DNA of 64,000 nucleotides from Azolla caroliniana (Eukaryota > Plantae > Polypodiophyta), in contig JBHGNT010000131.1 of assembly GCA_043228905.1 (NCBI GenBank), forward strand, positions 7,190-71,189, given 5' to 3'. The position numbers and the translations under genes were made by a program. A model generated the notes under the pieces. That model saw only the letters and a list, made by a program, of their open reading frames with translations, did not search any database and was not told the DNA's origin. This document shows positions 1,712 to 64,000 of this stretch, in pieces; the first letter of the stretch is position 1, and every line of letters begins with the position of its first letter.

Positions 1712-2042
1712 TGTTGGGATTTCGGTCCCTCCGGATGGGATGTCCGGAGATGAATGACGGCAAGCCCGGAGGCTGTTACGGAACCATATGATGAAGAGTA
1801 CCCGGCATGAAGCCGGATGAAGAGTACCCTGGTTACGGAGCCGGATGCTGAAGACCCCGGTTACGGAGCCGGATGACGTATGTACCCGGAGAGAGATCCG
1901 GATGCGGAGACATATTTGTGAATATGTTTGCCAAGGGCCCTTGAGGCTATACTTGTAAATAGCCCGAAAGTCATATATGTATAAATATGACTTAGGGCAA
2001 ATAGTTTCGTTGTTGCTTAATTTTCATGCAAAGTGAGAGCAG

Positions 2043-2079
<37 letters not shown>

Positions 2080-2341
2080 GAAGAGGTCGTTGCCTCTGTG
2101 TATTGCCGCCGCCTGTGGCGAAGACAGTGAGCTCAAGGTTGTTGCCTTGTAGCTTCACCAGTGTACATCCCTGTTCATAGTGATAGTTGGAGTTTGAGGA
2201 CTCCCGTGGTTTTTCCCATTTAGGGTTTTCCACGTAAAACATCCAGTGTACCTTTCTCTCTATTGTTTTGTGCATTTTGTATTTCCTGTTTTCTGTGAGT
2301 TGATCCCATTCCTCGGTTGTGGCCGAGCATTGTTTTCAACA
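1712..2341 (+). repeat. 5' LTR of the intact copia element (630 bp)
   Basis: tgttggg...tcaaca, with TATA (tataaata) near 1980, (GA)17 and imperfect gccggatga tandem repeats in U3. Confidence 0.97.
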
Positions 2342-2372
2342 AAGTGGTATCAGAGCGAGGTTAACCCAGAAA

Positions 2373-6446: not shown

Positions 6447-6456
6447 AGGGGGAGTT

Positions 6457-6787
6457 TGTTGGGATTTCGGTCCCTCCGGATGGGATGTCCGGAGATGAAT
6501 GACGGCAAGCCCGGAGGCTGTTACGGAACCATATGATGAAGAGTACCCGGCATGAAGCCGGATGAAGAGTACCCTGGTTACGGAGCCGGATGCTGAAGAC
6601 CCCGGTTACGGAGCCGGATGACGTATGTACCCGGAGAGAGATCCGGATGCGGAGACATATTTGTGAATATGTTTGCCAAGGGCCCTTGAGGCTATACTTG
6701 TAAATAGCCCGAAAGTCATATATGTATAAATATGACTTAGGGCAAATAGTTTCGTTGTTGCTTAATTTTCATGCAAAGTGAGAGCAG

Positions 6788-6834
<47 letters not shown>

Positions 6835-7096
6835 GAAGAGGTCGTTGCCTCTGTGTATTGCCGCCGCCTGTGGCGAAGACAGTGAGCTCAAGGTTGTTGC
6901 CTTGTAGCTTCACCAGTGTACATCCCTGTTCATAGTGATAGTTGGAGTTTGAGGACTCCCGTGGTTTTTCCCATTTAGGGTTTTCCACGTAAAACATCCA
7001 GTGTACCTTTCTCTCTATTGTTTTGTGCATTTTGTATTTCCTGTTTTCTGTGAGTTGATCCCATTCCTCGGTTGTGGCCGAGCATTGTTTTCAACA
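6457..7096 (+). repeat. 3' LTR of the intact copia element (640 bp)
   Basis: Appears identical to the 5' LTR except (GA)22 versus (GA)17. Confidence 0.97.
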
Positions 7097-7101
7097 ATAA
7101 C

Positions 7102-12400: not shown

Positions 12401-15400
12401 TCCAGGAAGAGGCAGTACGAGGGAAGCATGATGAAACAAAAATGGATATATGAATATAATGATCACAGTTTAAATATGGCAAGACCAAATAAATCTTGAG
12501 AAAGAAAATATGATCAATGAATTGCCCTCACTTATTGATGATATAATTGTGTGTTTTAACATTCAAACCTGAAAATCTCTTATGCTTAGATACATGGGTA
12601 TGTCAATATGTTAATTAGAATTAAAATATATAGTGTTAAATTGTTGCTGGTATGTAGGATTCTGAGATATCAAGCTTCAATGGTGCTGCAAATGCAGTGT
12701 TACCGTCTGGCTTTAAAGACATTGCTAACCAGTCATTTCCCTGCTTAAATCTTTCTGATGATGGATCAACTGATCCAGAGTGCAACACAGGCATAGAGGT
12801 AATGCTCGTTTTCTTTGTTTGCTGCTTGGTTGGGTTTCCCATATTATTGTCATTGTTAAAGTTAGTATTTTTCCATTTGGATGTTTCTCCTCCTCAATAA
12901 CAGTCCTAGGTGCAACCATTCTATGTGTGCTAGAGCTCCTTCCAAATCTAAATGCTAGTTCTTATCTCCTTTTTGTGTCATTACATGATTGAGCTTATTA
13001 TACTCTCCGATGGTGGTTGATCAAACCCATTGAAGACGATCATCAACGATCATGATACTACACTTACTGAGCTTTAAGTGTAATACAAGCCAATGCGGAG
13101 TACAAAATATGTAGATTCTACACAAGTCTAAAATGCATCAGTTACTATCTTTGGTTCATTTGCGAAGTGGAAATTTACAGATGGTCCTAAAGTGTCTTTT
13201 TCTCTATTGTTTGCCATATTACTATTTCCTGGATGCACTGGTTAAGAAAGATCTTTGTTCCTGATTGTTGTTTATCAAGCAGCACAACTTGTTTCCCTCT
13301 TCCACTTGCAAAAAGTTGGGATAGCCATTCCTGCTCCTAGGGCACTATTGAACAAATGATTGTAGGAAGTAAAGGCCCAATGCCTACTCACTTAAATCCA
13401 GAGAAGAACAATCCGAATACGTGAGAATGTGAACTCGTAGTCAAGAAATTGAGACCTTGTACCATCAAATTTTGCAGGTAGGCTAAACTTGGGTGGTTCT
13501 TTAATAAACCCTTCATCTCTTGTCAAATGTTGTTGCAAAGCCACCAACGCCGACTCTAATTATTGTATGCATCGTGTGAACTCATCATGTTATTTTTCCA
13601 CAGTCACCTTTGGAGATCCTGTTACAGGCATGACCATATAATATCCCGTGGTTAGATTGTATTGTAGTATTCTTTACACTCTCATTTAACTCTCACACTT
13701 TATCCACATGTATAGAATACTACGATACAATCTTACCACAGGATATTATATGGTCATTCTTGTAACAGATCCGCAAGCAATCATTGATTCTCCATCTCAA
13801 GTGCCACAAATTTGGGTTTAAAGCTTTCCAATGCAGGGACAACAATGATAAAATCTTGCTGGCTATCAACAGCCATAGCTATATAAGGCTTAGAAAGTGG
13901 CTAAGGAAAGGGGAAGTCTGGTTCAAACTGTCAGAATTGAAACAAGATAGTGATAGAAAGAGCAAGAGAAAGAGTGAGGGATGATAGAGATAGACGAGAT
14001 ATCAATGGATAGAGTGAGCGAGAGAGAGTAACTATGAAAGGAAATATGTATTAAGATAAAGGGAGCTTACTTGGAGGACTCGAGATTGGTGTTGAACCGA
14101 AATGGTTCGACAAGAGTGAGGGGCCTTCATTATATAGTGGGTCATGGAGCATTCTAGGGTTTCTAGAATGTCGTGGGATGTTCTAGGAAGGTCTAGGAAG
14201 TTTTAGAATGTTCTTGGAAATTATACCAATTATGATATTATATTACTATATAATAAATATATGTATCGGATAGCTTAATAGTTAGGTCCTTGGCATATAT
14301 ACACATAGGTTACAAGTTCAAACCTTGCCATCACAGAACCTTTCAAGCACTTTTTCAAAGTAGTTTCTCGGGACAGATAAAGTAGCTGATGTTGCCTATC
14401 TCTATTTATCCTCATACCCAAGATATGTTTAGTTGGGCCTAAAGCTTACATGGAAAAGGTTGTTTTTAGCTGGTCATTAAGTGAATTTAGAGTACCTTTT
14501 TATATAACAACAATAAGCATATCATCTACATATAGCACTGAAATGATGTGGTGCCATCGACATCCCTTTTTGGGTAAAGAGAATGGTCTACATGGCTCCT
14601 TTTAATCCACTTAATACCTTAAAAGCATCAAACATTTTGTACCAGTGTCTAGGAGTTTGTTTCAGCCCATATGGACTCCTCTCGACTTTGCATATTGAAT
14701 ATATCAGGGATTGCAAACCATTTGGCAGTTTTATATATAACTCTTCGTCAATGCCACCATGTATGAAAGCAGTTTTACACCCATTTGGTAAAGCTCCAAC
14801 TTAAGAGCTGTAGCAAGAGCAAACAAGGTTCACAAGTGGTCATTTTGATTACAGGGGAGAATACCTCTTGAAAGTCAACTCCATTTACTTGTAAATAGTC
14901 CTTTGCAACTAGGCTTGCTTTGTATGTGGGCTTTCCATCCACACTCTTGATTTTGTAGCCACCTCTTAGGAATGGTATTCTTATGTTTGGGCAATTCGAC
15001 TAACTCCCAAGTATCCTTTCAACTAAGTTCATGCAAAACTTTTATTTCTTACATTGCAAGCTCCCACTTGCTCTTTTGCCCACATAATCCAGCCTCTTTT
15101 GATGTAGGAGCCCCACCCCCATTAGTCAACATAAAGTATGACAACGAGGGCACGTATCTCAAAAAAGCCGTCCTTAATCTAGTATATCTTCTTACCCAAT
15201 TATTCCAAATATGCATGAATAGTCATATGAGGTTGATTTGCCAGACCAAACATCTTATGGATGCCAGCTTTCAATACAGTGTAAGGGGATGTATTCTATG
15301 CATGTACTGCAGTTTTCATAGTCTATTTCCAGAAGCCAGAAGGGAGATTAGCTGTAGATAACTTGCACCTCACACTTCATTGTGTCCTATCATATCTTTC

Positions 15401-29682: not shown

Positions 29683-30046
29683 GATTGATTTGTACTTCTT
29701 TCTCTTTAGAAGGTTCCATTGAACTATTTTAAGGATTACCATATATTACCACCAATCAATCATTAGTAGTGATTTTGAATTGGACCTCAAAAGTATACAG
29801 TAATACACTTGATTGTTTCCAACTTGGTTGTTTGAGTATATCAAAATATACATGTCCATATTATATCTATATATCAGATCATTCATTGATCTATATCAAG
29901 TTTGGGTAGAGTAGAGGAAACTACCTAATTGTGGGTATCTATATCAAGTCATTGATCTTTATCATTTGGGTAGAGCCATGGAAACTACTTAATTGTATGC
30001 ATATGCATATGCTTTTCATTCATCTATCTTTTAAAGAAAGCTAATA

Positions 30047-39290: not shown

Positions 39291-42200
39291 TGTTGAGACT
39301 CGTGGATAGAAGATAGAGTGAGAGCGAAAGAGAGAGGGTGTGTGTGTGTGTGTGCGTGAGAGAGAGAGAGTGAGAGAGATAAGACTTGAAATAGAAATGA
39401 GATTATATTATGATGAAACAAGATTACAATGAGTAGGCTAAGGGCTAAAAACTGGTGTTGAACCGAATGAGTTGAAACGAATGTATAGACAGTTATTTAT
39501 AGGTCCTTGTGGAGTAATCTAGAATGTTCTAGAATATTTTAGATTTTATGATAAGAAATATAATCATGAAATATTAAAGGATGTTCTAGAATAATCTAGA
39601 ATAATCTAGAATGTTCTAGACTAATCTAGAATGTTCTAGAATATTCTAATATCTTGTAATAACTAGAAACATAATTATTATAATCACACATCATATATGT
39701 TATTACAATGGTTAAGGGTTCAACACATAGACCAAGAAGCCGTGGGTTTGATTCTTGATAACCAAAATGTTGTCTTCATGACATTATCTCCCCCTTTCGA
39801 CGACGAGTTCCACGAGTCGGAAGACAAGAGTTCAGACTTGGTTTATGGGGATATTTGTCGTGAAATGCAACAACCATGTTGGAGGCATTAGCAAGATGCT
39901 CAACAGGCTCCCATGTTCAATCATTAGGTGTATAACCTAACCAATCAACCAAATAATATAGTTTGTTGCGGATGATCTTGGAGTCGAGAATAGCAGCAAC
40001 CTCATATTCAGAGCCATTGGAAACTTCGATTGGAGGTGGGGGAGGTGTAAGACGACCCGGAATAGAGCTTGTTGTGTAGGGCTCCAAAAGTGAAACATGG
40101 AAGACCGGGTGAAGACAGATATGAGGAGGGAGATCAAGACGAAATGTCACATCATTGATCTTACCAGAGATCACATATGGGCCGAAACGTTGATAATCCA
40201 ATTTGTAACAAGGTCGAGTGGTTTTAATGCTACCTTGTAAGAGCCATACACGATCTCCTACTTGAAACGTAGTCGATGAATCACGCCGATGACGATCAAC
40301 AATCTTCTTTTGAGTGTTTTGGGCATCACATAAATGATGCAAAAGTATATCTTGAATTTCTTGGAGTCGAGTGAGCCGATCTTCAGCAACCGGGTTTTTT
40401 GGGAGTTCGGGATGTTCAAGCATCGTCCAACGAGGATGGTACCCAATGTTAGCAAAAAATGGGGAATAGCCAGTAGAAGAATGTTCGGAGTTGTTGTAAG
40501 CAAATTCCGCCAAATGTAATAAATCCACCCAATCATCTTGTTGATAGTTGACAAAACAACGTAGATATTGTTCGATTGTTTGGTTGGTGTGCTCACTCTG
40601 CCCATTAGTCTCTGGATGGTAGCCGGAAGAGAGTTTACAAGAAGTATGTAAGAGTTTGAACATGTGCCGCCAAAATTTCGAGATGAATTGGGGACCCCGA
40701 TCACTGATAATATCATCCGGAAGACCATGATGGCGAAACACCTCCCGCATGAGTAAATCGGCTGTCTCTTGACTAGTAATGGTCTTCGTGCATGGAAGGA
40801 AATGCGCCATCTTCGTAAAACGATCGACTACCGTGAGAATAGAATCCAATCCCTTGGAAGGTGGAAGATCCGTAATAAAGTCCAAGGAAATAGATTTCCA
40901 TGGGCTCTCCAGAATAGGCATTGGCTGTAATAGGCCATATGGATGATGTCGAGGCTTTTTTGATCGGCAACATGTGTCACAACTACGAACATAATCCGTA
41001 ACAAAATGGCGAAGCTGTGGCCACCAATATTGGCGAGAAATCAACTCAAAAGTCTTGTGGATGCCGAAATGTCCAGCCATTGGCGTGTCATGACATTGTT
41101 GCACGACTTTGAGTCGAGAAGGACCGTCAGGCACATACAAGAGAGTTTGTCGAAAAAGCAAACCATCATGCCAATTGAACTGGGTGTAGTCTAGATGAGG
41201 ATCTTTAGATTGAGAGCTAGAAGCACGATCTGGGATAATATGACTCAAAACCTCTTGGGCAAATGCATATGTCGCAATCTGCTCCCAAATGGAATCAAGA
41301 AGCCTCGAATCTCCTGGTGTGTTGATAGTATGTATTGCCATTACTCGTAGACGATCAGGACCTAAGAGGATTTGCTTTTGACTTTCAAATGCGGCCTCTC
41401 CTGGTTGAAGTTCCATATACGAACATTGAGATAAAGCATCTGCTTTTCCTTGTTGCATCCCAGGGCGATATAGAATTACAAAATCAAAACAAGTTAAGAA
41501 CTGCGCCCAACGAGCTTGTCGACGATTCAAGACTTGAGCACTTTGGAAGTATGTTAGATTTTTGTGATCATTGAAGACAATAATCTGTTGAGAAGAACCC
41601 TCCAAAAAATGACGCCATTGTTGAAAAGAATCCACAATGGCAAGAAGCTCTTTGTTGTGAATCTCATAGTTGATTTCTGCGGCTTCAAATTTCTGTGAAT
41701 GAAAAGCCACAGGGTGCAGTTCACCATCTTCACCAATATGGGATAGTACGCTTCCAAGTGCGAAATCAAATGCATCAGCTTCAAGTTTAAAGCGCCTCAT
41801 TGGATCAACATGCATTAAAATTGGTGCAGATGTAAACACTTGCTTTAAACCCTCAAATGCAGAGTTTGCATCTATACCCCATACAAATGGTTGATTCTTG
41901 CGCGTTAGTTGAGTGAGGGGGAATACAATCTTTGAATAATCTTTGATGAACTTGCGATAAAAGTTTGCGAACCCCAAAAAACATTGTACATCTCGCACAG
42001 ACTGTGGTGTTTGCCAATCCAAAATTGTTTGAACCTTTGATGGATCCATAGAGATGCCATTTGAAGAGATTATGTACCCCAAAAATTCCACTTGACACTG
42101 GTTGAAACTACACTTCTCCAATTTTGCATAGAGACCATACTCTCGTAACCGTTGCAAAACTTGGCGAACATGTATCTCATGCTCCTCTTGAGTTTTTGAG

Positions 42201-44702
42201 TAGATCAAGATATCATCCAAGTAAACTATGATGAAGATATCGAGGAAGTCTCGAAAAATGTCATTCGCCATATGTTGGAAACTGCTGGTGCATTCGTGAG
42301 ACCAAATGGCATCACTGTATATTCAAAATGACCATAGCGAGTGCGGAATGCGGTCTTCCATTCATCCCCAGGACGAATGCGAACAAGGTTGTAGGCACCT
42401 CGAAGATCTAACTTCGTGAAAAACTTTGCTCCACTGAGGCGTTCTAGAAGGCTTGAGATCAATGGTAGATCATATCGGTTTCTAATAGTTACTTTATTCA
42501 AGCCCCGATAATCCACGACCATACGAAGCGTACCATCTTTCTTCTTAACGAAAAAGATGGGTGCACCAGCAGGAGATCTTGAATGTTGGATAAAACCATT
42601 TGCCAGGTTCTCATCTATATATTCTTGAAGAACCTCTAACTCTGTGGGCGAAAGGTTATAAATTGGTCCCCATGGAGGCTCTTTTCCTGGCTGCAAATCA
42701 ATTGGGCAATCATAGGGTCAATGCTCTGGTAATCTATTAGCCTTCACCTTATCGAACACATCGGAGAATTCTATGTACTTCTTTGGTAATTGGACCCCCC
42801 AATTCTTGTGAGGTAGATGAGGGAGTTGCTAAAACCGCAAACACCATCATGTCTTCCTTCCTTCCATCCTCTCGTAACTGATGTATAGAGATTGTTGAAA
42901 TCATGTGGGATCCTAGATCCTTTGTTGGAGTTTCAAGAGACTCGGACTGTACTATGACCTCTTCAATAGTTCTTTTTCTCCAATCAATAGTTGGGTTATG
43001 TAACTCAAACCAAGGAAGACCAAGAACTAGAGAGTGCTCTGGACTACTAATGATGTTGAATGAGATGATACTAGCCAAATTACCTAGGACTACACGAATT
43101 GATTCAGACTCTTCGACTATATCACCTGATGCTATAGGGCGATCATCAATGACTCCTACAGCTACTGGGTTCGAGAGCTTGTTCAAGATGATGTTTTGGG
43201 TCAATGCAAACTCGCGATCCATGAAACAAGAATTGGCTCCAGAATCTAGGAGGGTAGAGGCTAGGACTCGATGACTTGTAGATGTGCTAAGCTTGACTTG
43301 TGCAGAAAAAACTCTACTAACTTGATTTGATGAAATGGAACCACAACTAGGTACAAACTCTACATATCTAGGATGGTCCAACCAAATGGCTCCTATTTTG
43401 GCCGGACTTATTCGTTTAACACATCCTCTAATTGGCTCAAGACATCAAATCTATTCTCATGGCATGGGTTATTAGGCTTAGTAGTTAAGTTATTAGAAGT
43501 GATAGTAGAACTCATGGTAGGGTTGTCATGTGCACTTGGTAAACTTGTCGTCTGGGTTTATGTGGACAATTCACATCAATATGTCCTGGACCACCACGGT
43601 AGAGGCATAGGCGATGCGCCCGACGTCGTTGTTTCTCAGCATCTGATAAAGGCCCTCGACGTTGTGTTGACTCTATTTCCATCGGAGTGGGACCATCCCT
43701 CGTAACGGGTCTGGGAACGTGTGGCGGTGTTGCGACTATTGAAGCATACGTCTGTTCTGGTTGACGGCGTAACATTTGTTGACGTTCAGAACGTCGCTCA
43801 TATAGGCGATTATCACATCGCATAGCTCGACTAATGGCCTCTGTAAGAGACTTTGGATCTTCGTGGAAAGTAAGAAGAAGATCTTTGACATCGTTATGCA
43901 AACCCTGACAAAATTGATCCATTAAGGCTGCCTCATCCCAAGGGATGTCACATGCCAAGAGATGGAAATCTGCTGCGTAGGCTGAAGCGGGACGATCTCC
44001 TTGTCGGAGTCTTCAAATCTTGTTTATTGCCGTTCTAGTGCTATCAGTGTCTCCAAAACTAGCTTGAAATTCTTTAACGAATGCCTCGAAATCCTCCAAC
44101 AATGGTGATTTCTTCTCTAGAAGTGGTGCAAACCATGCTAATGCGGTACCGCTTAGCAAGGTTCCTATTAATCCCACACAAGCAGCATCAGTTGGGTACC
44201 GATTGGGATGTAACTGAATCACCAAACGGACTTGATTCAGGAACCTACTCATTGTAATCTTGTTTCATCATAATATAATCTCATTTCTATTTTAAGTCTT
44301 ATCTCTCTCACGCACACACACACACCCTCTCTCTTTCGCTCTCACTCTCGCTCTCACTCTATCTTCTACCCACGAGTCTCAACAGTTTGAACTGAATGAG
44401 TTGAAACAAATGTATAGACAGTTATTTATAGGTCCTTGTGGAGTAATCTAGAATGTTCTAGAATATTTTAGATTTTATGATAAGAAATATAATCATGAAA
44501 TATTAAAGGATGTTCTAGAATAATCTAGAATATTCTAGAATAATCTAGAATGTTCTAGAATATTCTAATATCTTGTAATAACTAGAAACATAATTATTAC
44601 AATCACACATCATATATGTTATTACAATGGTTAAGGGTTTAACACATAGACCAAGAAGCCGTGGGTTCGATTCTTGATAACCAAAATGTTGTCTTCATGA
44701 CA
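39291..44702 (-). mobile_element. Tcn1-like Gypsy chromovirus, defective, with rearranged 5' LTR
   Basis: 3' LTR at 39291-39783, with the PPT complement at 39784-39799. The 5' LTR ends at 44702. TSD ATAGT at 39286-39290 and 44703-44707. Contains gag, PR (LLDSGA), RT (YLDD), RH, IN (GPY) and chromodomain. Confidence 0.95.
39790..44243 (-). pseudogene. Frameshifted gag-pol of the minus-strand chromovirus
   Basis: ORF pieces 44013-44252, 43512-43958, 42749-43381, 42226-42696 and 39917-42271 are collinear with the 54775-59508 copy. The gag N-terminus is deleted. Confidence 0.9.
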
Positions 44703-48500: not shown

Positions 48501-51500
48501 CTGTCTATGTGGGATATCTCACAATTTTATTTTTCTCTTTGTTTGCAAACTTTCTACCCACATAAGTTGACACTTAGATGTCCGTTTCTTATGTAGTAAA
48601 GTGTATCCGAAAGCTCTTTAAGACCTCCATCTTTTTGTACTAAGATATTAAACTTACTTAAAATTAGTATCTTCACTATTATTGTTTTATATGAATCACA
48701 CTCGATTTCGTACGTTTTATGTGATTTTCACACCATTGCCGAAAATCTTCACGACAACGGGTTTGATTTCGATCGAATCGTCATCTACACGATCCAACCG
48801 AGCATCGACTCGGCTCGATTCGGTGGTTGGAGAATTTTTCTCATTCTCCCAATCAATCATTGTATTCTCTTCCATGAAGACAATGTCTCGGCTCCTAATC
48901 ATCTTCTTCTCGGCTAAGTCCCATAGCCGATAACCGAACTCATCATCGCCGTAACCGAGAAATATGCACGGCCGAGATTTCGAGTCTAATTTCCCCCTCT
49001 GGTCCTTTGCTAGATGCACAAAAGCAAGACAACAGAACACCCTCAAATGTCGGTACGACATGTCTTTGCTGCTCCACACTCGTTGTGGAATATCACCATC
49101 CAGGGTACTGAGGGTGATCGGTTTATCACATATGCTGTTGTTATTAGCGCCTCAACCCAAAACGTTTTCGGTAATTTTGCATGTGCAAGCATGCTTCAAA
49201 CTCTCTCCATTATGGTCCCATTCATTCTCTTGGCCAACCCATTCAGCTCTGGCATTTTTGGCACGGTATACTCAAGTTGGATTCATTCTTTTCGGCAATA
49301 TTCTTCGAACGGTTCACGGTACTCTCCGCCATTGTCCGCTCGGACTGCCTTCAACTTACGACCGGTTTCTCTCTTGACCCTCACTTGGAACTCTTTGAAG
49401 ACGGATAGCACTTGATCCTTCGTCTTTAGCATGAAAGCCCACAACTTCCGACTATAATCGTCTATAAAGGTCACGAAATATTGTGAACCACTATGCGACT
49501 TCGTCTCCACGTAGCATACATCCATATGCACGAGTTCCAGGGGTATCTTCTTCCTCATTGGGGGCCTTGTTTGGAAGGATGTTCGATTTTTCTTACCGGC
49601 CAAGCAATCCGTGCATTTCTCAAGTTGCACATTCTTCACCTTCGGAATGAGGTTCTCCTCAGCAAGCTTCTGCATCCCCTTTTGGCTCATGTGGCACAAC
49701 CTCATGTGCCATAGTTCATCGATTGTTTTGGCTGCCACATTCACTTCCCCACGACATAATCGAGCATTCATTACGTACAGTGTGTTGGTTTTCCGTGCTT
49801 GAGCCACGATTAGGCTCCCCTTGCAGAACCTCATGACACCATTCCGGATGCTACTCGTGTAGCTTTCATCATCCAGCCGACCGGCTGATATCAGGTTCAA
49901 TCGAACCTCCGGAATGTGTTGAACATCTCTCAGCACAAGTCTGCAGCCAGTTGAGGTCACCAAACACATGTTTCCAATGCCGACAATTCGACATGCTTCT
50001 TCATTTCCCATCTTTACGGATCCGAGATCATTGGCCCTGTACGATGAGAAGCATTTCCGGTCAGGGGTTAGGTGAAATGACGCACCCGAATCGACCACCC
50101 ATGTTGATTCATCGCCGACAAGGCTCACTTCGTTCTGCTCGCTAATGAGTAGCAACTCCTCCTCACTTGTCGCGATCGCCAAGGTGTTCCTGCTTTTCGA
50201 TTTTTTTTCGGTTGCACACCATCGGCTCCCCCTTTTCCTTTCAGAAATGTCGGCAATTCTTTTGAAAGTGCACCGGCTTCCCGCAATAGAAGCACGTGGG
50301 CCTTCTTCTCAACTTTGACCTCGTCCTCGATTTGTCCCTGTTTTGGGGACTCCGATACCGGCCTCTTCCCCGGTTGTGGTCATCTTCCGTAACCAAGGCC
50401 TTCGGATCGGTTCCGGACTCTCGGTCCTTTCAGTGAGCTTCTTCACCTAGCAGGCTTGATTTTACCCTTGCTGGGGACAACTACGTTTCTTCCGGCCCGG
50501 CGTTGCCCAACGTGACAACTAACGTCTCCCAACAATCCGGGAGGGAACCAAGTAGGAGCAATGCGAGTACCTAATCCACAAGAGGTACTTCCAACGAGAT
50601 GGCTTGGTGTATCAATCCCAGGAAGGCATTCATGTGCTCCGCCATACTGGAGCCGTCCTGGTACCGGAGCCTCACTAGCTTCCGGAATACCGAAACTTGA
50701 TTAACAACATTCTTGTTTTGTAACATGATGCCAATCTTCTCCCAGAGTTCATGAGCCTTGTTGTCTTCATTGAAATTGTTGTACAGGCTCATGTCAATGA
50801 AGCACTGGATATATGTCGTCGTCTTCATGTGCATCACATCCCACATTGTGGCGTCAATCTTATTCGGTCTCTTGTCCTTGAACTAAACCGGCAACGAAAG
50901 ATCTTTAACCACTAGCATATCCCTCATCTTTGACTTCCACACTGAGTAGTTGGATCCGGTGAGCTTGAACATGCCGCCGAACGATTCTTCCATTTCATGT
51001 GTTGTTCGCTCTGATACCACTTTGTCGAGAATCGTGACCGGCCACAACCGGTTTATCATTCAGATGTTCGGGTGTAGGGAACATAAAGTAGAATGCACTC
51101 AGGCAGAGTACGAAAACAGAAATAACACAAGAGATAGAAACACACGATCTTATCGTGAAAACCCGAAATGGGAAAACCACGGGGGTCCACAAACATTGAG
51201 AAACAGAATCACTATGCTAAGAGGAGGAGTACAAATAGAAGCTCTAAGGCAACGACGTCGAGATTTTACTTCGTCAACAGACGACTACATAATTACACAC
51301 TCTCTCACTCTCACTCGCTTATCGTTACACAGTTATAGAGGCAACAACCTTCTAAGTAGCTTTTTAACATTAACTCATAATCACATTATGATTTCCCTAA
51401 GTACTTATACTAGTACACCTTTTGGGTTATTTACAAGTGTAGCCCATAAGGACATATTTAGACTATTTAGAAGTATAGTCTTCTGAGTTGGCTGTCTACA

Positions 51501-51577: not shown

Positions 51578-54500
51578 TCTTCCCATCTTCCCATTTAGGG
51601 TTTCCACATAAACATCGTGTGTCATCTAGTTGTTAGTTTGTTTTTTCCTTCCATTCGTTGTTTAAGACTCAATTGTGGCCAAGCGCTAATTTTCTGCACA
51701 AACTGGTATCAAAGCTAACAAGGGAATGGAAGAATCATTCGGTGGCATGTTCAAGCTCACTGGCTCCAACTACCCAGTTTGGAAGTCGAAGATGAGGGAC
51801 ATGCTCGTGGTAAAAGATCTCTGGCTGCCGGTACAGTTCGGGGACAAGAAACCCGACAAGATCGATGCCACGACATGGGAGGTGATGCACATGAAGACAA
51901 CGACGTATATTCGGTCCTTCATCAACATGAGCTTGTATAACAACTTTAATTAAGAAAGTAAAGCTCATGTGTTCTGGGAGAAAATCGGCACTATGCTGGA
52001 GAGTAAAAACATCGTAAATCGGGTTTTGGTATTCTGGAAGCTAGTGAGACTCCGGTACCAGGACGGATCTAGCATGGCAGAGCACATGAATGCATTTCAA
52101 GGGCTGATAAATCAAACAACTTTGTTTGAAGTACCTATGGCCAATGAGGTACTTGCATTGCTCTTGCTCGGTTCCCTCCCAGATAGTTAGGAGACGCTAG
52201 TTGTCACTTTGGGGAATGCCAAGTCGGAAGGAAAGCAGTTGTCCCTAGCAAGGGTAAAATCAAGCTTGCTAGATGAAGAACCTTGCCGGAAGGACTGGGA
52301 ATCTGGAACGGATCTGAAGGCCTTGGTCATGGAAGATGACCAAAACCGGGGAAGAGGCTGGTATCAAAGTCCCCAAAACTGGGACAAATCGGGGACGAGG
52401 TCGAAGTCAAGGGGAAGGCCCACTTGCTTTTACTGTGGGAAGCCGGGGCAATTCCATAAGAACTGTCAACATTTCCAGAAAGAGAAAGGGGCCAACACCA
52501 CCGATCTGAAGAAGAGTTCGGACCGGAGAGGTCCGGATCGGAAAGGAACGTCGGCGATCACGACAAGTGAAGAAGAACTGATGCTCATTGCTGAGGAGAA
52601 TGAGTTAAACCTTGTTGGCGACGAGACAACGTGGGTTGTCAATTCCGGAGCATCATTCCATCTAACATCGGACGGAAATGCTTCTCATCCTACACAGCCG
52701 GAGATCACGGTTGTGTCCGGATGCAGAATGAAGGGACCTGCCGAATCATCGGCATACGAGATGTGTTGTTGATGATATCAACCGGATGCAAATTGCGACA
52801 CATTCCGTAGGTTCAGTTGAACCTGATATCAGCCGGTCGGCTAGATGATGAAGGCTACATGGGTAGCATCTTGAACGGAATCATGAAATTCAGAAAAGGA
52901 AGCCTGATTGTGGCTCGAGCCTGGATGATTAACACGATGTATCTGATGCATGTCCGGATATGCCGGGAAGAAGTGAATGTAGCATCTGACACTACCAGTG
53001 AGCTGTGGCACAAGAGACTGTGTCATATGACCCAGAAGGGGATGAGAAGACCTGCCAAAGACAACCGCATTCCGAAGGTGAAAGACATGGATCTTGAGGA
53101 GTGCACCGATTTCTTGGCCGGAAAGCATAACTGAATCTCCTTCCGCTCAAGACCACCGATGAGACGGAATGCACCACTGGAGTTGGATACCCTCTCAGAG
53201 AGAGAAGAGCCCTCCGGAGATTTCCGGATGCAAAGCACGTATTGTTGACCAATGAGGGGGAGCCGGAAAGCTTCGAGGAACCTAAGAAAGACACCCACAA
53301 CCACAAGTGGTTGAGTACCATGCAGGACGAGATGGATTTCCTACATGAGAACCACACATACGAACTGACGGAGTTGCTGAAAGGAAAGAGGGCACTCCTG
53401 AACAAGTGGGTGTACAAGCTGAAATCGGGAGACGCTGGAAATCCACCAAGGTACAAAGCCTGGATCATGGTGAAGGGGTTCCAGCAGAAGAAAGGAGTTG
53501 ATTTCAACGAGATCTTCACCTCGGTAGTAAAGATGACATCCATCCGGACGGTATTGAGCAGAGTGGCAAGCATGGACCTCGAGGTAGAGCAACTGGACGT
53601 TAAGACGACATTCCTACATGGCGACCTCGAAGAAGAGATCTACATGCATCAACCAGAAGGATTTGAGAGGAAAGGGAAGGAGCACCTGGTATGCCGGCTA
53701 AAGAAGAGCCTATACGGATTGAAGCAAGCCCCCCAGCAATGGTACTGGAAGTTCAACTCCTTCATGACCAACCCAAGGTACCACAAGACACAAGCGGACC
53801 ACTGCGTGTTTGTGAAGAAATTTGACAGAGGCGACTTCTTGATACTCCTGATTTATGTGGACGACATGTTGATTGTCGGAAGAGACCAAAACAAGATCCG
53901 AATACTGAAGAAGGCTCTGAACCGAACCTTCTCAATGAAAGACTTGGGTTTGGCAAAACAGATATTAGGGATGCACATCATCTAGGACTTGCCGAAGAAG
54001 TTGTTGTGGTTGTCACAAGAGAAGTACGTGACAAAGGTGCTTCAATGGTTCAACATGTCGGAGAAGACGGATATGATGAAGATACCATATGCCTCCGTCG
54101 TCGGGAGCTTGATGTGCGCAATGGTGTGTACCTGGCCGGATGTCATGAAGACATACATCTTGGCTTATCATGACATTCATCTTGGCGAACCAGGAATCGA
54201 ACCCATAACCTCTTGGTTTACATATTGTACTTTAACCATTGTAATAACATATGTGAGATGTAATCATAATAATTATATGTTTAGTTATTACGAGATATTT
54301 AGAACATTCTAGATTATTCTAGAATGTTCTTGAATATTTCATGATTATATTTATTATTATTATTATTCATAAATATCTAAAATATTCTAGAACATTCTAG
54401 AATACTCCATAAGGGCCTATAAATAAGAGTCCATACACTCATCACAACTCATTCGGTTCAACACCAGTCTTTAGCCCTTAGCCTACTCCTTGTAATCTTC

Positions 54501-54774
54501 TTTCTCATAATATAATCGCATTCCCATTTCTTATCTCTCACTTATACTTTTCTCTCTCTCGCACTCTCTCCCTCTTTCACTCTCTTTCTATCACTATCGC
54601 TATCTCTACCGCTCTCGCCATCTCTATCGTTATCGTTATCTCTATCGCCATCGCTCTCTCTCTCTGCTTCCTACTCAAGAGTCACGACAGTTTGAACCGA
54701 ATATTTCTTTTCCCTTTCTCCAATAACTCTAGCAAGCTTTCTTCTTTATCCTTCTTTCTTTTTCCCCCGCGGTT

Positions 54775-55876
54775 ATGGAGTCGATCAGCAAGCAAGAGTA
54801 TATGCGTGTCCTTTCGGAGCTCGATATGCTCACCACTAAGTTTGTGGCATTAGAGCAAGAAAATCAAAGGCTACTCGGGGATCTTCAACAAGTCAGTACT
54901 GAGAAAGCTCATCAATATGAGGAGTTATCACAACGGGTTCATCAACTTGAGGCTACTATATTAACATTACGAGAACAAGCGGCGGGGGTTCAAAACTCCC
55001 CAAGGGAACCAAAGATTAGCCTCCCTGCCAAGTTTGATGGTACCAGATCTCTCTTTCGAGGTTTCCTGAATCAAGTTCATTTGGTGATTCAGTTACATCC
55101 CAATCGGTATCCAACTGATGCTGCCCGTGTGGGATTAATAGGAACCTTGCTAAGCGGTACAGCGTTAGCATGGTTTGCACCACTTCTTGAGAAGAAATCA
55201 CCATTACTGGAGGATTTCGAGGCATTCGTTAAGGAGTTTCAAGCTAGTTTTGGAGATACGGATAGCACTAGGACTGCAATAAACAAGATTCGAAGACTCC
55301 GACAAGGAGATCGTCCCGCTTCAGCTTATGCCGCAGATTTCCGTCTCTTGGCATGCGACATCCCTTGGGATGAGGCAGCCTTAATGGATCAATTCCGTCA
55401 GGGTTTGCGTAACGATGTCAAAGATCTTCTTCTTACTTAAAGCTATTAGCCGAGCTGTGCGATGTGATAATCGCCTATTTGAGCGACGTTCTGAACGTCA
55501 ACAAATGTTACGCCGCCAACCGGAACAGACATACGCTTCTATAGTCACCACACCGCCACAAGGTTCTAGACCCGTTACGAGGGATGGTCCCACTCCGATG
55601 GAAATAGAGTCGACACAACGTCGAGGGCCCTTATCAGATGCTGAGAAACAACGACGTCGGGTGCATCGCCTATGCCTCTACTGTGGTGGTCCAGGACATA
55701 TAGCTGTGAATTGTCCACATAAACCCAGGCGTCAAGTTTACCAAGTAAGTGCACATGACAACCCTACATCAAGTTCTACTATCACTTCTAATAACTTAAG
55801 TACTAAGCCTACTAGCCCATGCCATGAGAATAGATTTGATGTCTTGAGCCAATTAGAGGATGTGTTAAACGAATAA
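54775..55876 (+). pseudogene. Chromovirus gag, frameshifted by a ~26-bp deletion at ~55437
   Basis: ORFs 54775-55440 and 55415-55876, with coiled coil, PKISLPAKFDG and CLYCGGPGHIAVNC. The sister copy has FHEDPKSLTE at the junction. Confidence 0.9.
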
Positions 55877-58800
55877 GTCCGGCCAAAATAGGAGCCATTT
55901 GGTTGGACCATCCTAGTTATGTAGAGTCAGTACCTAGTTGTGGTTCCATTTCATCAAATCAAGTTAGTAGAGTTTTTTCTGCACAAGTCGAGCTTAGCAC
56001 ATCTACAGGTCATCGCGCCCTAGCCTCTGCCCTCCTAGATTCCGGAGCCAATTCTTGTTTCATGGATCGCGAGTTTGCATTGACTCAAAACATCATCTTG
56101 AAAAAACTCCCAAACCCAGTAGCTGTAGGAGTCATCGATGGTCGCCCTATAGCATCAGGAGATATAGTCGAAGAGTCTGAACCAATTCGTGTAGTCCTAG
56201 GTAATTTGGCTAGTGTCATCTCATTTAACATCATTAGTAGTCCGGAGCACTCTCTAGTTCTTGGTCTTCCTTGGTTTGAGTTACATAACCCAACCATTGA
56301 TTGGAGAAAAAGAACTATTGAAGAGGTCACCGTACAATCCAAGTCTCTTGAAGCTCCAACTAAGGATCTAGGATCCCCCACAATTTCAACAATCTCTATA
56401 CATCAATTACGAGAGGATGGAAGAAAGGAAGACATGATGGTATTTGCGGTTTTAGCAACTCCCTCATCTAGCTCACAAGAATTGGGGGTCCAACTACCAA
56501 AGAAGTACATAGAATTCTCCGATGTGTTCGATAAGGTGAAGGCTAATAGACTACCAGAGCATCGACCATATGATTGCCCAATTGATTTGCAGCCAGGAAA
56601 AGAGCCTCCATGGGGACCAATTTATAATCTTTCGCCCACGGAGTTAGAGGTTCTTCGAGAATATATCAATGAGAACTTGGCAAATGGTTTTATCCAACAT
56701 TCAAAATCTCCTGCTGGTGCACCCATCTTTTTCGTTAAGAAGAAAGATGGTACGCTTCGTATGGTCGTGGATTATCGAGGCTTGAATAAAGTGACCGTTA
56801 GAAACCGATATGCTCTCCCATTGATCTCAAGCCTTCTAGAACGCCTCAGTGAAGCAAAGTATTTCACGAAGTTAGATCTTCGAGGTGCCTACAACCTTGT
56901 TCGAATTCGTCCTGGGGATGAATGGAAGACGGCGTTCCGCACTCGCTATGGTCATTTTGAGTACACAGTGATGCCTTTTGGCCTCACGAATGCACCAGCA
57001 GTCTTCCAACATATGGCGAATGATATTTTTCGAGACTTCCTCGATATCTTCATCATTGTTTACCTGGATGATATCTTGATCTACTCAAAAACTCAAGAAG
57101 AACATGATATACATGTTCGCCAAGTTTTGCAACGGCTACGAGAGTATGGTCTCTATGCAAAATTGGAGAAGTGTAGTTTCGACCAACGTCAAGTGGAGTT
57201 TTTGGGGTACATAGTCTCTTCAAATGGCATCTCTATGGATCCATCAAAGGTTCAAACAATTTTGGATTGGCAAACACCACAGTCCGTGCGAGATGTGCAA
57301 TGTTTTTTGGGGTTCGCAAACTTTTATCGCAAGTTCATCAAAGACTATTCAAAAATTGTGTTGCCCCTCACTCAACTGACGCACAAGAATCGATCATTTG
57401 TATGGAGTATAGATGCGAACTCTGCATTTGAGGGTTTAAAGCAAGAATTTACATCCGCACCAATCTTAATCCATGTCGATCCAATGAGGCGCTTTATACT
57501 TGAAGCTGATGCATCGGATTTCGCACTCGGAAGTGTACTATCCCAAATTGGTGATGATGGTGAACTGCACCCGGTGGCTTTTCACTCACGAAAATTTGAA
57601 GCCGCAGAAATCAACTATGAGATTCACGACAAAGAGCTTCTTGCCATTGTGGATTCTTTTCAACAATGGCGTCATTTTCTGGAGGGTTCTTCTCAGCAGA
57701 TTATTGTCTACAATGATCATAAAAATCTAACATACTTTCAAAGTGCTCGAGTCTTGAATCGACGACAAGCTCGTTGGGCGCAGTTCTTAACTCGTTTCGA
57801 TTTTGTAATTCTATATCGCCCTGGGATGCAACAAGGAAAAGCAGATGCTTTATCTAGACGTTCGTATATGGAACTTCAACCTGGAGAGGCCGCATTTGAA
57901 AGCCAAAAGCAAATCCTCTTAGGTCCTGATCGTCTACGAATAATGGCAATGCATACCATCAACACACCGGGAGATTCAAGGCTTCTTGATTCCATTCGTG
58001 AGCAGATTGCGACTGATGCGTTCGCCCAAGAGGTTTTGAGCCATATTATCCCAAATCGTGCATCTAGCTCCCAAACTCAAAATCCTCGTCTAGACTACAC
58101 CCAGTTTAGTTGGCATGATGGGTTACTTTTTCGACAAACTCTCTTGTATGTGCCTGACGGTCCTTCTCGACTCAAAGTCATGCAACAATGTCATGACACA
58201 CCAATGGCGGGACACTTCGGCATCCACAAGACTTTTGAGTTGATTTCTCGTCGATATTGGTGGCCACGGCTTCGCGATTTTGTTACGGATTATGTTCGTA
58301 GCTGTGATACATGTTGCCGATCAAAAAAGCCTCGACATCATCCATATGGCTTATTATAGCCAATGCCTATTCCGGAGAGCCCATGGAAATCTATTTCCTT
58401 GGACTTTATTACGGATCTTCCACCTTCCAAGGGATTTGATTCGATTCTCACTGTTGTCGATCGTTTTACGAAGATGGCACATTTCCTTCCATGCACAAAG
58501 ACCATTACTAGTCAAGAGACAGCTGATTTACTCATGCGGGAGGTGTTTCGCCATCATGGTCTTCCGGATGATATTATCAGTGATCGGGGTCCCCAATTCA
58601 TCTCGAAATTTTGGCGGCACATGTTCAGACTCTTACATACTTCTTGTAAACTCTCTTCTGGCTACCATCCAGAGACTAATGGGCAGAGTGAGCGCACCAA
58701 CCAAACAGTCGAGCAATATCTACGTTGTTTTGTCAACTATCAACAAGATGATTGGGTGGATTTACTACCTTTGGCAGAATTTGCTTATAACAACTCCGAG

Positions 58801-59508
58801 CATTCTTCTACTGGATATTCCCCATTTTTTGCAAACATTGGGTACCATCCTCGTTGGACGATGCTTGAACATCCTGAACTCCCAAAAAACCCAGCTGCTG
58901 AAGATCGGATCACTCGACTCCAAGAAGTTCAGGATATGCTTTTGCATCATTTATGTGAAGCCCAAAACACTCAAAAGAAGATTGCTGACCGTCATCGGCG
59001 TGATTCATCGACTACATTTCAAGTAGGAGATCGTGTATGGCTCTTACAAGGTAGCATTAAAACGACCCGACCTTGCTACAAATTGGATTATCAACGTTTT
59101 GGCCCATATGTCATAAGTGGTAAGATCAATGATGTGACATTTCGTCTTGATCTTCCTCCTCATATGCGTCTTCACCCGGTCTTCCATGTTTCACTTTTGG
59201 AGCCTTACACAACGAGCTCTATTCCGGGTCGTGTTACACCTCCCCCACCTCCAATTGACGTTTCCAATGGCTCTGAATATGAGGTTGCCGCTATCCTCGA
59301 CTCCAAGATCATTCGCAACAAACTATACTACTTGGTTGATTGGTTAGGCTATACACCTAATGATCGAACATGGGAGCCTGCCGAACATCTTGCCAATGCC
59401 TCCGACATGGTTGTTGCATTTCACAACCAATATCCTCATAAACCAAGTCTGAACTCTTTTCTTCCGACTCGTGCAACTCGTCATCGAAAAGGGGGGATAA
59501 TGTCATGA
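55861..59508 (+). CDS. Chromovirus pol (PR-RT-RH-IN-chromodomain), -1 frame to gag, one in-frame TAG at 58357-58359
   Basis: Motifs LLDSGAN, YLDDILIYS, ADASDFALG, HDTPMAGH..CDTC, ISLDFI..SDRG..ERTNQ, GPY and EYEVAAILDS..YLVDWLGY..RTWEP. Confidence 0.92.
55864..55915 (+). other. Predicted -1 ribosomal frameshift signal (G_UUA_AAC plus H-type pseudoknot)
   Basis: Heptamer at 55864-55870 and a 6-nt spacer. Stem 1 is gtccggccaaa/tttggttggac. Loop tagga pairs with tccta at 55911-55915. Identical in the minus-strand copy. Confidence 0.75.
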
Positions 59509-60180
59509 AGACATACATCTTGGCTTATCATGACATTCATCTTGGCGAACCAGGAATCGAACCCATAACCTCTTGGTTTACATATTGTACTTTAACCATT
59601 GTAATAACATATGTGAGATGTAATCATAATAATTATATGTTTAGTTATTACGAGATATTTAGAACATTCTAGATTATTCTAGAATGTTCTTGAATATTTC
59701 ATGATTATATTTATTATTATTATTATTCATAAATATCTAAAATATTCTAGAACATTCTAGAATACTCCATAAGGGCCTATAAATAAGAGTCCATACACTC
59801 ATCACAACTCATTCGGTTCAACACCAGTCTTTAGCCCTTAGCCTACTCCTTGTAATCTTCTTTCTCATAATATAATCGCATTCCCATTTCTTATCTCTCA
59901 CTTATACTTTTCTCTCTCTCGCACTCTCTCCCTCTTTCACTCTCTTTCTATCACTATCGCTATCTCTACCGCTCTCGCCATCTCTATCGTTATCGTTATC
60001 TCTATCGCCATCGCTCTCTCTCTCTGCTTCCTACTCAAGAGTCACGACACCGGATATTGCATATGTTGTCGGAGTAGTTAGTCGGTTCATGAGCAATCCG
60101 GGAAGAGAGCACTGGAACGCGGTCAAGTGGATAGTCCTGTATCTGAAGGGCACCTCGAATATGTGCCTCCGGTTTGGCTC

Positions 60181-61104
60181 GAGATGTGCGTGTCACAAGC
60201 GCAGACAAGCACCGGGCCTCTATCCGCTAGTGGTTATGGAGGATTGACGATGGGATTTCCGCGCCTACGGGTCAGTTGAACAGGACCACCAAGGTCTTTG
60301 ACCGGGGAGAACAAATCGGGTGACTTGTGTTTGTAAGGAATTGGCCATTTAGGCTTATCATCGAGTCGTCCTTTGTTGTCGAAGACGCTCCCGAACCCGA
60401 CTCAATGGTGCGGTAGATTGACGTGTAGGTAGCTGAAGTAACACACTAATGTGGTTGAGAGTGTGTGAGAGAGAGAAACGAAAATTGAGGAAGTATTTAA
60501 GATAGATAGATAGATAGATGTAGACGGATTGAAATTCCAATTCTAGGTTTGAACCCTTCACTTTAATTTAGAGAAACAAGACACATCGCCAATAAGATAC
60601 CTAGGTTTTCTTATTAAAATATCTTGGTTTAATCCATAGCTTGCTTGATACATAGCTTGTTTGATTCATCGATCGATTCCCACTTATATAGATGCCCCCA
60701 TGCATATGTGCATGTGAGGGTGTAAGACATGCATACAATGCATGAAATGCATGCGAGGCATGATTGCCATTTGGCGCTCATGCATCACATGTGATGCATG
60801 ATGACCATGTACCTCATCCAAGCTCTCATGTATGAGCATTCACATGTGAAAAACATAACGATGATTTGAAGAAATAACTTAGCCTAATGGTAAGTCAGTT
60901 GTCTTCTATCTTGGAGGTGCAAGGTTCAATACTTGCACCCCTTCGCATGCTTGAAAATGCAAATAGGCTTTAGGTGTTCTCATTACATTTATATTTACAA
61001 CATGCTAATGTATGAGTGTAACCATCACCCCTTTCATTCGTGTGCACATTACACCTTCTCGATTCCACGCGATTTTCACACTGTTGTCGAAAATCTTCAC
61101 GACA
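60181..61104 (-). mobile_element. Solo-LTR-like insertion related to 47891-48756
   Basis: Same right end (gattttcacac..gaaaatcttcacgaca) and a shared tatagatgccc..atgcat..tttggcgctcatg block. It interrupts copia ggctc|cggtaa. The left terminus is damaged. Confidence 0.8.
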
Positions 61105-62567: not shown

Positions 62568-64000
62568 TGTCATGAACACATGACCATTATGGCGTCACCC
62601 AAACTTGAACCTCGAACCTTGTAATCCATAATTGAAAACCTCAATCATTAAGATAGCTTATTGTCATATCAAAGGATATAAGCTACTTTTTGTATTAGAT
62701 TGATTATTGTAAAAACTCTAGATCATTCTAGAATGTTCTAGAATGTCCTAGAACATTCTAGGTCTAGAACATTCTAGAACATTATAGAAATCTCTAAGCT
62801 ATTCTATAGGAACCTATAAATAAGGGCATACATGTATTCTCAAATCAATTCGAATCAACACTAGTCTTTAGCTCTCATTACATATCTTGTATCCATTCTC
62901 TTTCTTTCTCTATCTTAATACACTCATTCTTCTATTAGCATTTCGTTCCTTTCTTCTCGTGTTCCCTTATATCCTTCTTCTATCACTCTATCTTTTATTC
63001 TTGGTTTTGACAGTTTGATTCAAATTCCCTCACTCACTCTCTCTCTCTCTCTCTCATCCTCCTCTGTAACCATCACGAAACCATGGTTGCCATTAACTCA
63101 GAAGAATATCTCACCCTTGTTGCAGAAATGGAGAATATTAAATCCAAGTTCGCATCTCTTGAAGTAGAGAATCAACGTCTACTTGGGGATCTACAAAAGG
63201 TTACTATAGAAAAGCGGCAACAACAAGAGGAGTTCACACGACAAGTTCAACAATTAGAGTCGACAATCGTAGTGTTACAACAACAAAGGGTCGAAGGTCA
63301 AGGACTTATCAAGGAATCCAAAATCAGCCTCCCAGCTAAATTTGATGGTTCAAGGGCGCATTTCCGAGGTTTCTTGAATCAAGTATGGTTGGTGATTCAA
63401 ATGCATCCCAAACGTTATCCGGCAGATGCATCACGAGTCGGGTTAGTGGGCACCTTATTGACTGGCATAACGTTCTCGTAGTTTGCTCCATTGCTAGAGA
63501 AAAATTCTCCTCTACTGAATAATTTTGAGGAATTTATCAAAGAATTTAAGGCTTGTTTCGGAGATACTAATGGGGTGAGAACAATTATCCTCAAGATTCG
63601 TACACTACGTCAAGGTGATCAGCTAGGTTCGACATATGTAACCAATTTCCATCTTGTCGCAAGCAATATTCCTTGGGATGAACAAGCCCTAATGGAGCAA
63701 TTCCATCCAGGCCTTTGTAGTGATGTCAAAGACTTACTTCCTACCTTCCCTAAGGATCCAAGGTCACTTACAAAAGCTATTAGTTGAGCAATACAAGGTG
63801 ATAATCGCCTTTTTGAGCATCAATGTGAGTGACAACAACAAATAACAAGATCAAGATTCACACCAACTTATGCATCAGTAACGACACAATCATCCCCAAG
63901 GCAAACATATAGCCCTGCTCCAACTCCAAGGCAAACACGTAGTCCAGTCCCAATGGATAATCCTACACCCATGGACATCGATATCACTCAACGACGAGGA
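62568..64000 (+). mobile_element. Tcn1-like chromovirus 5' part (LTR 62568-63012, decayed gag from 63083), running off the window
   Basis: tgtcatg...ttgaca LTR with TATA at ~62815. The gag KISLPAKFDGSRAHFRGFLNQV contains stops. Confidence 0.9.

Follow-up and report, generated by a model that had tools for sequence, protein, structure and literature searches.

The long terminal repeats (LTRs) of chromovirus element B and of its relatives, located in a 64-kb window of Azolla caroliniana DNA (the whole stretch of 64,000 nucleotides (nt) analysed, from contig JBHGNT010000131.1), contained a tRNA-type promoter module in antisense orientation. The module lay in the unique 3′ (U3) region and was a genuine, selected, clade-wide feature. 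It was composed of an A box and a B box, the two internal elements of a tRNA-type promoter for RNA polymerase III (Pol III), and its feature coordinates are listed in Table 1.

The window was a plant transposon island, moss-like as judged from its Tcn1-type elements, in which copia elements occurred together with four families of Ty3/gypsy type. Families related to element B were represented by elements A, C, and D, and inserts E and F were LTR-like sequences without coding DNA. Five of these six elements (B, C, D, E, and F) were inserted in copia coding sequence. Element B was a 5.9-kb gag-pol element, in which Pfam domains for gag, reverse transcriptase (RT), RNase H, integrase, and a C-terminal Chromo domain were found in Ty3/gypsy order. 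Its LTRs were identical (550/550 against 59500–60049). The pol frame of this copy was interrupted by a stop and ended 8 nt into the 3′ LTR, well short of the module. The chromodomain was of group I and retained the aromatic cage residues Y, W, and Y, as read by eye from the translation against the accessible part of a published description (PMC3350952). The sequence-only reading that preceded this analysis had held that the element needs no tRNA primer. This was borne out by a self-priming complement of 11 nt between the repeat (R) region and the primer-binding site (PBS), similar in C and D, and by the lack of a tRNA PBS in element B. In the accessible parts of the literature, self-priming is documented for Tcn1, elements of this type are reported from mosses and club-mosses only (PMC6317226), and the aromatic-cage type of chromodomain is linked to heterochromatin targeting (PMC3350952).

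Detection of the antisense module

The letters quoted by the sequence-only reading at 54183–54252 on the minus strand were verified, and the five other sites that it listed were also present. In tRNA numbering, the distance from T8 of the A box to G53 of the B box was 44 or 45 nt at the six sites, as had been claimed, and 44–46 nt in all 16 aligned modules. All six modules were antisense to their own element and lay in U3, with G53 positioned 20–62 nt inside the left LTR end (20 nt in element D, whose LTR starts at 14335).

An independent yardstick was provided by 437 distinct tRNAs predicted by ARAGORN in viral contigs, and a two-box matrix was built from 276 of the 326 class I sequences. When both strands of the window were scanned with this phage/bacterial matrix, the six sites ranked 1, 2, 3, 4, 7, and 9 among 127,896 positions. 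Ranks 5 and 6 were two further modules in insert E, and rank 8 was copia RT coding sequence. With a tRNA profile in nhmmer, the element B copies were detected at E = 1e-4 and 17.8 bits, against 11.0 bits for the best of 20 block-shuffled windows. The segment 44650–44675 was detected at E = 0.02, the sites at 39731 and 14268 scored weakly, and the 62601 site was absent from the hits of this profile. Conversely, when the modules themselves were used to build a model, 29 of its 30 hits were ARAGORN tRNAs.

Conservation of the promoter boxes

When the modules of 13 families were aligned, the boxes were conserved beyond background and the intervening sequence had diverged, in agreement with the sequence-only reading. 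T8, G19, A44, G46, G53, T54, T55, and A58 were invariant. The region means were 0.64 for the A box, 0.79 for positions 44–48, and 0.78 for the B box, compared with 0.37 for the anticodon arm and 0.27 for both the downstream sequence and the background. The ten core box positions showed a mean pairwise identity of 0.92, against 0.37 in the anticodon arm and 0.27 in the background (p = 2e-5, with columns partly chosen by the matrix). Because the matrix had helped to place the rows of the 13 families, the test was repeated on U3 sequences aligned without it (10 LTRs, the first 27 nt of the D row being copia flank). This alignment gave 0.80 for the B box, 0.71 for the A box, and 0.90 for the TATA box, with 0.27 and 0.40 for the spacers and 0.33 for the enhancer region. 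Between B and A5, no differences were found at the 20 box positions and 27 were found at the 66 positions elsewhere. Common variants in the contigs of four runs, aligned to B, were distributed in the same manner, with 0 of 20 box positions and 10 of 46 non-box positions affected (p = 0.02).

These figures bear on the simplest alternative, a neutral relic of an old tRNA or short interspersed element (SINE) insertion that was carried passively. Losses of the module in L013, L014/L019, L016/L018/L050, and insert F speak for it. Against it, the boxes retained 0.7–1.0 identity while their neighbours were at or near saturation, across families with 53–70% integrase identity, and the variant sites avoided the boxes as described above. 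This explanation is largely refuted, and we give it hardly any credence.

Positions 44–47 were kept together with the boxes: A44 and G46 were invariant in the modules, compared with conservation of 0.27 and 0.46 in the phage/bacterial tRNA set. According to the accessible part of one report, yeast TFIIIC contacts the base at G47, transcription responds to changes at +44 to +47, and TFIIIB is positioned by the A box (PMC11724288). Since the boxes and positions 44–47 were kept, the spacers were close to background, the stems showed no covariation, and no terminator was kept, the object of selection is, judged from sequence, a DNA promoter and not a tRNA.

The same positions might instead be kept for another reader, either a Pol II transcription factor or a sense RNA signal for packaging or strand transfer, with the likeness to Pol III promoters due to descent. 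U3 edges generally carry cis signals, and the module was lost in several members of the clade, both of which would suit such a reader. However, conservation fell on positions 44–47 and on the two boxes, spaced as in tRNAs, a sense W-box-like reading was not kept (identity 0.40 at position 48 and 0.31 at position 49), and no conserved fold was present. We regard this explanation as improbable.

Comparison with tRNA genes and type 2 promoters

The module was not a full cloverleaf, as had been noted from the sequence; the acceptor stem was 34% paired and the anticodon stem 38%, without covariation. Cloverleaf pairing was 47.2% in both the modules and their shuffles, covariation was 0.212 versus 0.205, and no consensus fold was predicted for the modules. 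ARAGORN found no tRNAs and yielded noise at a relaxed threshold. The tRNA search that had been proposed returned no tRNA match in Rfam, and the cloverleaf model R1 scored 10.5 bits (E of about 1). A functional tRNA or a primer role was excluded by the absent pairing, the absent fold, and the self-priming PBS. A retained primer tRNA with its CCA was also rejected, since the CCA after the B box in element B lay 4 nt early and was unconserved. Coding constraint on the module was rejected as well, as pol stops at 59508, outside the module.

As in a type 2 Pol III promoter, the A box and the B box were spaced as in tRNAs and the sequence upstream was AT-rich, with an AT content over 40 nt of 0.68–0.95 in 14 LTRs, a range that has no matched control. 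Over 11 LTRs, the AT profile peaked at 0.80–0.86 between 10 and 40 nt upstream of T8, compared with 0.54–0.69 away from it. Plant tRNA genes load TFIIIB at an AT-rich upstream region, according to the accessible text of one study (PMC13578239). A poly(T) terminator was not a general feature, with no run of four T inside the LTR in 9 of 14 LTRs. The longest T run between the B box and the LTR end was 2–3 in B, A, C, L001, L007, L008, and L009 and 4 in L003–L006 and E, and a run of five T in element D lay in the copia flank, outside the LTR.

The main rival to a boundary function is an active Pol III promoter with a functional antisense RNA, which would run from the 3′ LTR over the U3 edge and the polypurine tract into pol and would tune expression, small RNAs, or reverse transcription. 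The retention of both boxes, of the tRNA spacing, and of the AT-rich tract exceeds the needs of a site with a B box only, and the orientation was constant; both observations are consistent with such a promoter. The RNA itself left little trace, with pairing equal to that of shuffles (47%), the covariation given above, no consensus fold, T runs of only 2–4, and downstream identity at background. Because neither a structure nor a terminator was conserved, the earlier suggestion of an antisense-RNA source was weakened, and we consider this rival rather unlikely.

Distribution across related elements

At least 80 related loci were fetched from about a quarter of the collection. Together with A and B they gave 82 rows, of which 60 had enough DNA past the integrase to be scored. 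The hits included no named Tcn1 reference. A quick tree of 77 of the 82 rows (short matches dropped, midpoint root, support from the Shimodaira–Hasegawa-like approximate likelihood ratio test, SH-aLRT) placed A and B in a 21-row clade (SH-aLRT 98). Antisense scores of at least 13 were obtained for 10 of the 17 scored rows within the clade and for none of the 43 outside it (best 12.2; Fisher p = 3e-7, at a cut-off chosen after the scores had been seen and with non-independent kin rows). A polypurine tract was called in just 28 of these 43 rows, and part of the scanned DNA may be non-LTR. On the sense strand, none of the 60 rows reached 13. Within the 1.04 Mb scanned, places outside LTRs also gave scores of 13–22, and the top 11 hits were all modules. 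With such scores and a post hoc cut-off, specificity is therefore carried by place and strand.

The module was found in families down to 53% integrase identity, and further carriers outside the count were L011 (53% identity, score 22.9), A (25.1 and 17.5), and L038 (31.2). A weak copy in L015 was missed by the fixed scan, and the B box of L014 was decayed, as judged by eye. The module was missing in L013 (of which 108 nt of LTR only were present), L016, L018, L019, and L050. No relatives were found in the viral contigs, and five distant relatives were found in the genome contigs, none with a module at the LTR edge among the hits listed. As carriers occurred in both halves of the clade, one gain followed by losses within the clade is the simplest reading of these sequences. 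The statement that all chromovirus LTRs carry the module therefore held for the six LTRs originally listed and failed for insert F and for related elements, which lacked it outside the clade and in places lost it inside. The module occupied the same place and strand throughout the clade, which supports the view that it was inherited once and does not represent independent SINE insertions. No SINE tail or separate target-site duplication was seen by eye in the LTR alignment.

The module could also be a landing pad or targeting device, comparable to the integration of Ty3-like elements upstream of Pol III genes. In the accessible literature, Tj1 and elements of Dictyostelium are described as showing Pol III targeting. 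In the window, B, C, D, E, and F were inserted in copia coding DNA and not next to tRNA genes, and among the loose ends listed no LTR-type end lay directly upstream of an A box, which makes this role very unlikely.

LTR architecture and enhancer turnover

From the left LTR end, the order was 20–62 nt of sequence (181 nt in E), B box, A box, AT-rich tract, enhancer region, and TATA box. The Pol II TATA box was located 135–200 nt from T8 in all 11 LTRs measured. The enhancer motifs are ones that we take to be heat-shock elements (HSEs) and RY motifs. HSE-like enhancers were present in A, B, C, D, L007, and L009. In L003, L004, L005, and L006, the module was kept alongside RY-like motifs, and HSE-type pairs were absent. 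When sister families were compared (54299–54405 with L003:3500–3620, L005, and L006), either HSE-like arrays or RY-like motifs together with GCCA..TGGCG motifs were observed between the module and the TATA box. The sequence-only reading had tied the module to a heat-shock promoter. This link was not upheld, as HSE arrays were replaced by other motifs in about half of the families and the module, persisting through these enhancer swaps, is not tied to heat shock.

Insert E contained two A/B modules that pointed away from each other and flanked an RY-like enhancer and a TATA box. The first of these, with its large distance from the LTR end, was nevertheless 190 nt from the TATA box. The second was recovered with E = 3e-5 by a module model that had not been trained on it.

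Proposed role of the module

On balance, we lean towards the interpretation that the outward-facing tRNA-type promoter is retained, within a single clade of plant chromoviruses that are autonomous and self-priming, as a likely TFIIIC/TFIIIB-bound boundary and likely open-chromatin anchor for the Pol II promoter of the element itself. The insulator suggested by the sequence-only reading is thereby kept as the preferred, though putative, role. The module would descend from a tRNA gene, or from the head of a tRNA-derived SINE, that was captured once. TFIIIC is predicted to bind the extended B box, and the A box would position TFIIIB on the AT-rich tract. In the 5′ LTR, the resulting complex would act as a barrier that separates the enhancer from the flanking chromatin, and this boundary would keep the Pol II enhancer and TATA box open inside silenced DNA. 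The backward orientation would spare the enhancer, TATA box, R region, and PBS from Pol III and would turn the TFIIIB side towards the enhancer, and any antisense RNA would be a by-product. A precedent is provided by tRNA genes and extra TFIIIC (ETC) sites, which are described as TFIIIC-dependent heterochromatin barriers in the accessible part of one account (PMC12409998).

In a more general form, which we put forward as a tentative but real possibility, the domesticated tRNA promoter would be a portable TFIIIC/TFIIIB insulator of heterochromatin-targeting autonomous retrotransposons, with each insertion carrying its own boundary and solo LTRs scattering outward Pol III sites. Insert E may be an extreme form, in which two such sites bracket the Pol II promoter. 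The family of element B appears to be high-copy, with a contig depth in the thousands (which is not a copy number), and could therefore supply many TFIIIC sites to the genome. Chromoviruses enter silenced DNA and yet need transcription; a built-in site for Pol III factors would, if true, be a concrete solution in cis. To our knowledge, TFIIIC boundaries have received little study in plants.

Several points weigh against a boundary function. By the fixed scan, 7 of the 17 clade members scored had no module or a decayed one, and insert F (47891–48756), a relative of E, had lost both modules (score −12.5), so the module is dispensable. In the 3′ LTR, Pol II has to transcribe across it, a would-be cost, and methylation of old copies could block factor binding. 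The tRNA reference set was phage/bacterial and not plant, the AT-rich peak lacks a proper control from module-less LTRs, and no conserved CAA motif was seen by eye upstream of the module. Furthermore, conservation alone does not tell whether a Pol III promoter serves as a barrier or in another way.

Other features of the window and atypical copies

In the 5′ LTR of element A, the unique 5′ (U5) part was inverted (44244–44386), and the PBS and the start of gag seem to be deleted. The top-scoring module overall (L038:68–154) was in sense orientation just upstream of a gag, and resembles the left end of an oppositely inserted LTR. The self-priming R motif (54453–54461 and 62850–62860) resembled the core of a sense B box, with loose B-box hits at 54456 and 59816, and in both family C and L014 it had changed along with the PBS.

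An intact-looking copia element at 1712–7097 contained an open reading frame (ORF) of 1380 residues and LTRs with 98% identity, which carried no module. A multi-exon host gene was located at 18141–23089, with BRCT/BAH-like later exons (by eye), and a low-complexity host ORF of 932 residues with internal repeats at 30035–32833. No Pfam hit was obtained for the three long ORFs scanned, and no homologue was found for the C-terminus of the 932-residue ORF.

Table 1. Coordinates of the promoter modules and of the features of element B in the window
Feature	Position	Strand	T8/G53	Remark
5′ LTR of chromovirus element B	54141..54689	+	54246/54202 (−)	TG...CA ends, 5-bp target-site duplication; inserted in copia pol, copia on both sides
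B box, tRNA positions 53–61, element B 5′ LTR	54194..54202	−		Antisense
AGGT motif, tRNA positions 44–47, upstream extension of B box	54208..54211	−		A44 and G46 invariant in 13/13 families
A box, tRNA positions 8–21, element B 5′ LTR	54233..54246	−		Antisense
AT-rich tract upstream of the antisense module	54254..54293	−		AT 0.80; predicted TFIIIB site
Array of nGAAn repeats, HSE-like (enhancer region)	54299..54405			Presumed HSEs
Pol II TATA box of element B	54418..54424	+		172 nt from T8; 0.90 identity over 9 other families
R-region stretch complementary to PBS	54451..54461	+		Self-priming
Self-priming PBS	54690..54703	+		11-nt R/PBS complement
gag and pol of element B	54733..59508	+		RT, RNase H, integrase, group I chromodomain
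3′ LTR of element B	59501..60049	+	59606/59562 (−)	Module directed toward polypurine tract and pol
Module, 3′ LTR of minus-strand element A	39701..39756	+	39701/39746 (+)	B box with C56T
Module, 5′ LTR of element A	44620..44675	+	44620/44665 (+)	Two-box matrix, nhmmer, alignment
Module, 5′ LTR (14335–13929, minus) of truncated element D in copia RT	14271..14326	+	14271/14316 (+)	Two-box matrix
Module, 5′ LTR (62568–63012, plus) of element C in copia RT	62600..62655	−	62655/62610 (−)	Two-box matrix
Extra module, antisense in LTR-like insert E (about 60192–61104, minus sense)	60880..60934	+	60880/	Not listed in the sequence-only reading
Second module in insert E	60544..60599	−	60599/	Rank 5 in matrix scan; downstream of the TATA box of E, opposite facing

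Comparison with known systems

The published systems below are compared as far as the accessible parts of the cited accounts describe them. Cassandra, a family of miniature terminal-repeat retrotransposons (TRIMs), had been named as the known analogy. It shares conserved Pol III promoter boxes in plant LTRs (PMC10886601; bioRxiv 10.1101/2023.07.14.548913), and this part of the analogy stood. Cassandra differs in that its promoter is of the 5S type 1, supplants the Pol II promoter, and directs synthesis of the RNA of the element itself, and in that the element is non-autonomous (same sources). It is not the closest analogue, since the tRNA-derived Helenus is nearer.

Like the module, Helenus/TRIMp3 has tRNA-derived LTR sequence that is conserved around boxes A and B, forms no functional tRNA, and is not a primer (PMC10886601). 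One plant member, from Selaginella, is described. Helenus elements are non-coding TRIMs of 311–1263 bp, tRNA-primed, with a promoter proposed to transcribe the element, which is in sense orientation in the Selaginella and wasp LTRs and antisense here (PMC10886601). Whereas Helenus is non-autonomous and under about 1.3 kb, element B is a self-priming gag-pol element of 5.9 kb with a Pol II TATA box and enhancer. The same paper argues that any autonomous partner has to rely on Pol II, which makes it unlikely to have LTR sequence of this kind in common with them. It further mentions that ‘not a few’ Repbase LTRs resemble parts of tRNAs, of which only TRIMs were pursued, so a database annotation of the present arrangement may exist (PMC10886601).

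The module resembles tRNA-gene and ETC barriers in its B box with extension and predicted TFIIIC binding, from which its boundary role is drawn by analogy. Those barriers are fixed host loci, the ETC sites being without TFIIIB and Pol III (PMC12409998), whereas the module is mobile, has retained an A box together with an AT-rich tract, and adjoins its own Pol II promoter. The host elements resemble Tcn1-clade chromoviruses of mosses and lycophytes in their group I chromodomain, self-priming, and nesting in transposon-rich regions (PMC6317226, PMC2864245, PMC3350952). These traits are also shared with RLG1/RLG2 of Physcomitrium patens, likened by description only (PMC7466625). In the accessible parts of these accounts, no tRNA-like or Pol III element of the LTR is mentioned (PMC6317226, PMC2864245, PMC3350952, PMC7466625). 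A case in Culex differs, being a tRNA duplication at the PBS (PMC3286476). In the literature searched, which did not include subscription journals or Repbase records, no antisense tRNA promoter in the LTRs of autonomous plant chromoviruses was described. Compared with these systems, the module extends the capture of small-RNA promoters, as known from the non-autonomous TRIMs and SINEs, to elements that are autonomous; its orientation is the opposite one and its purpose apparently a different one.
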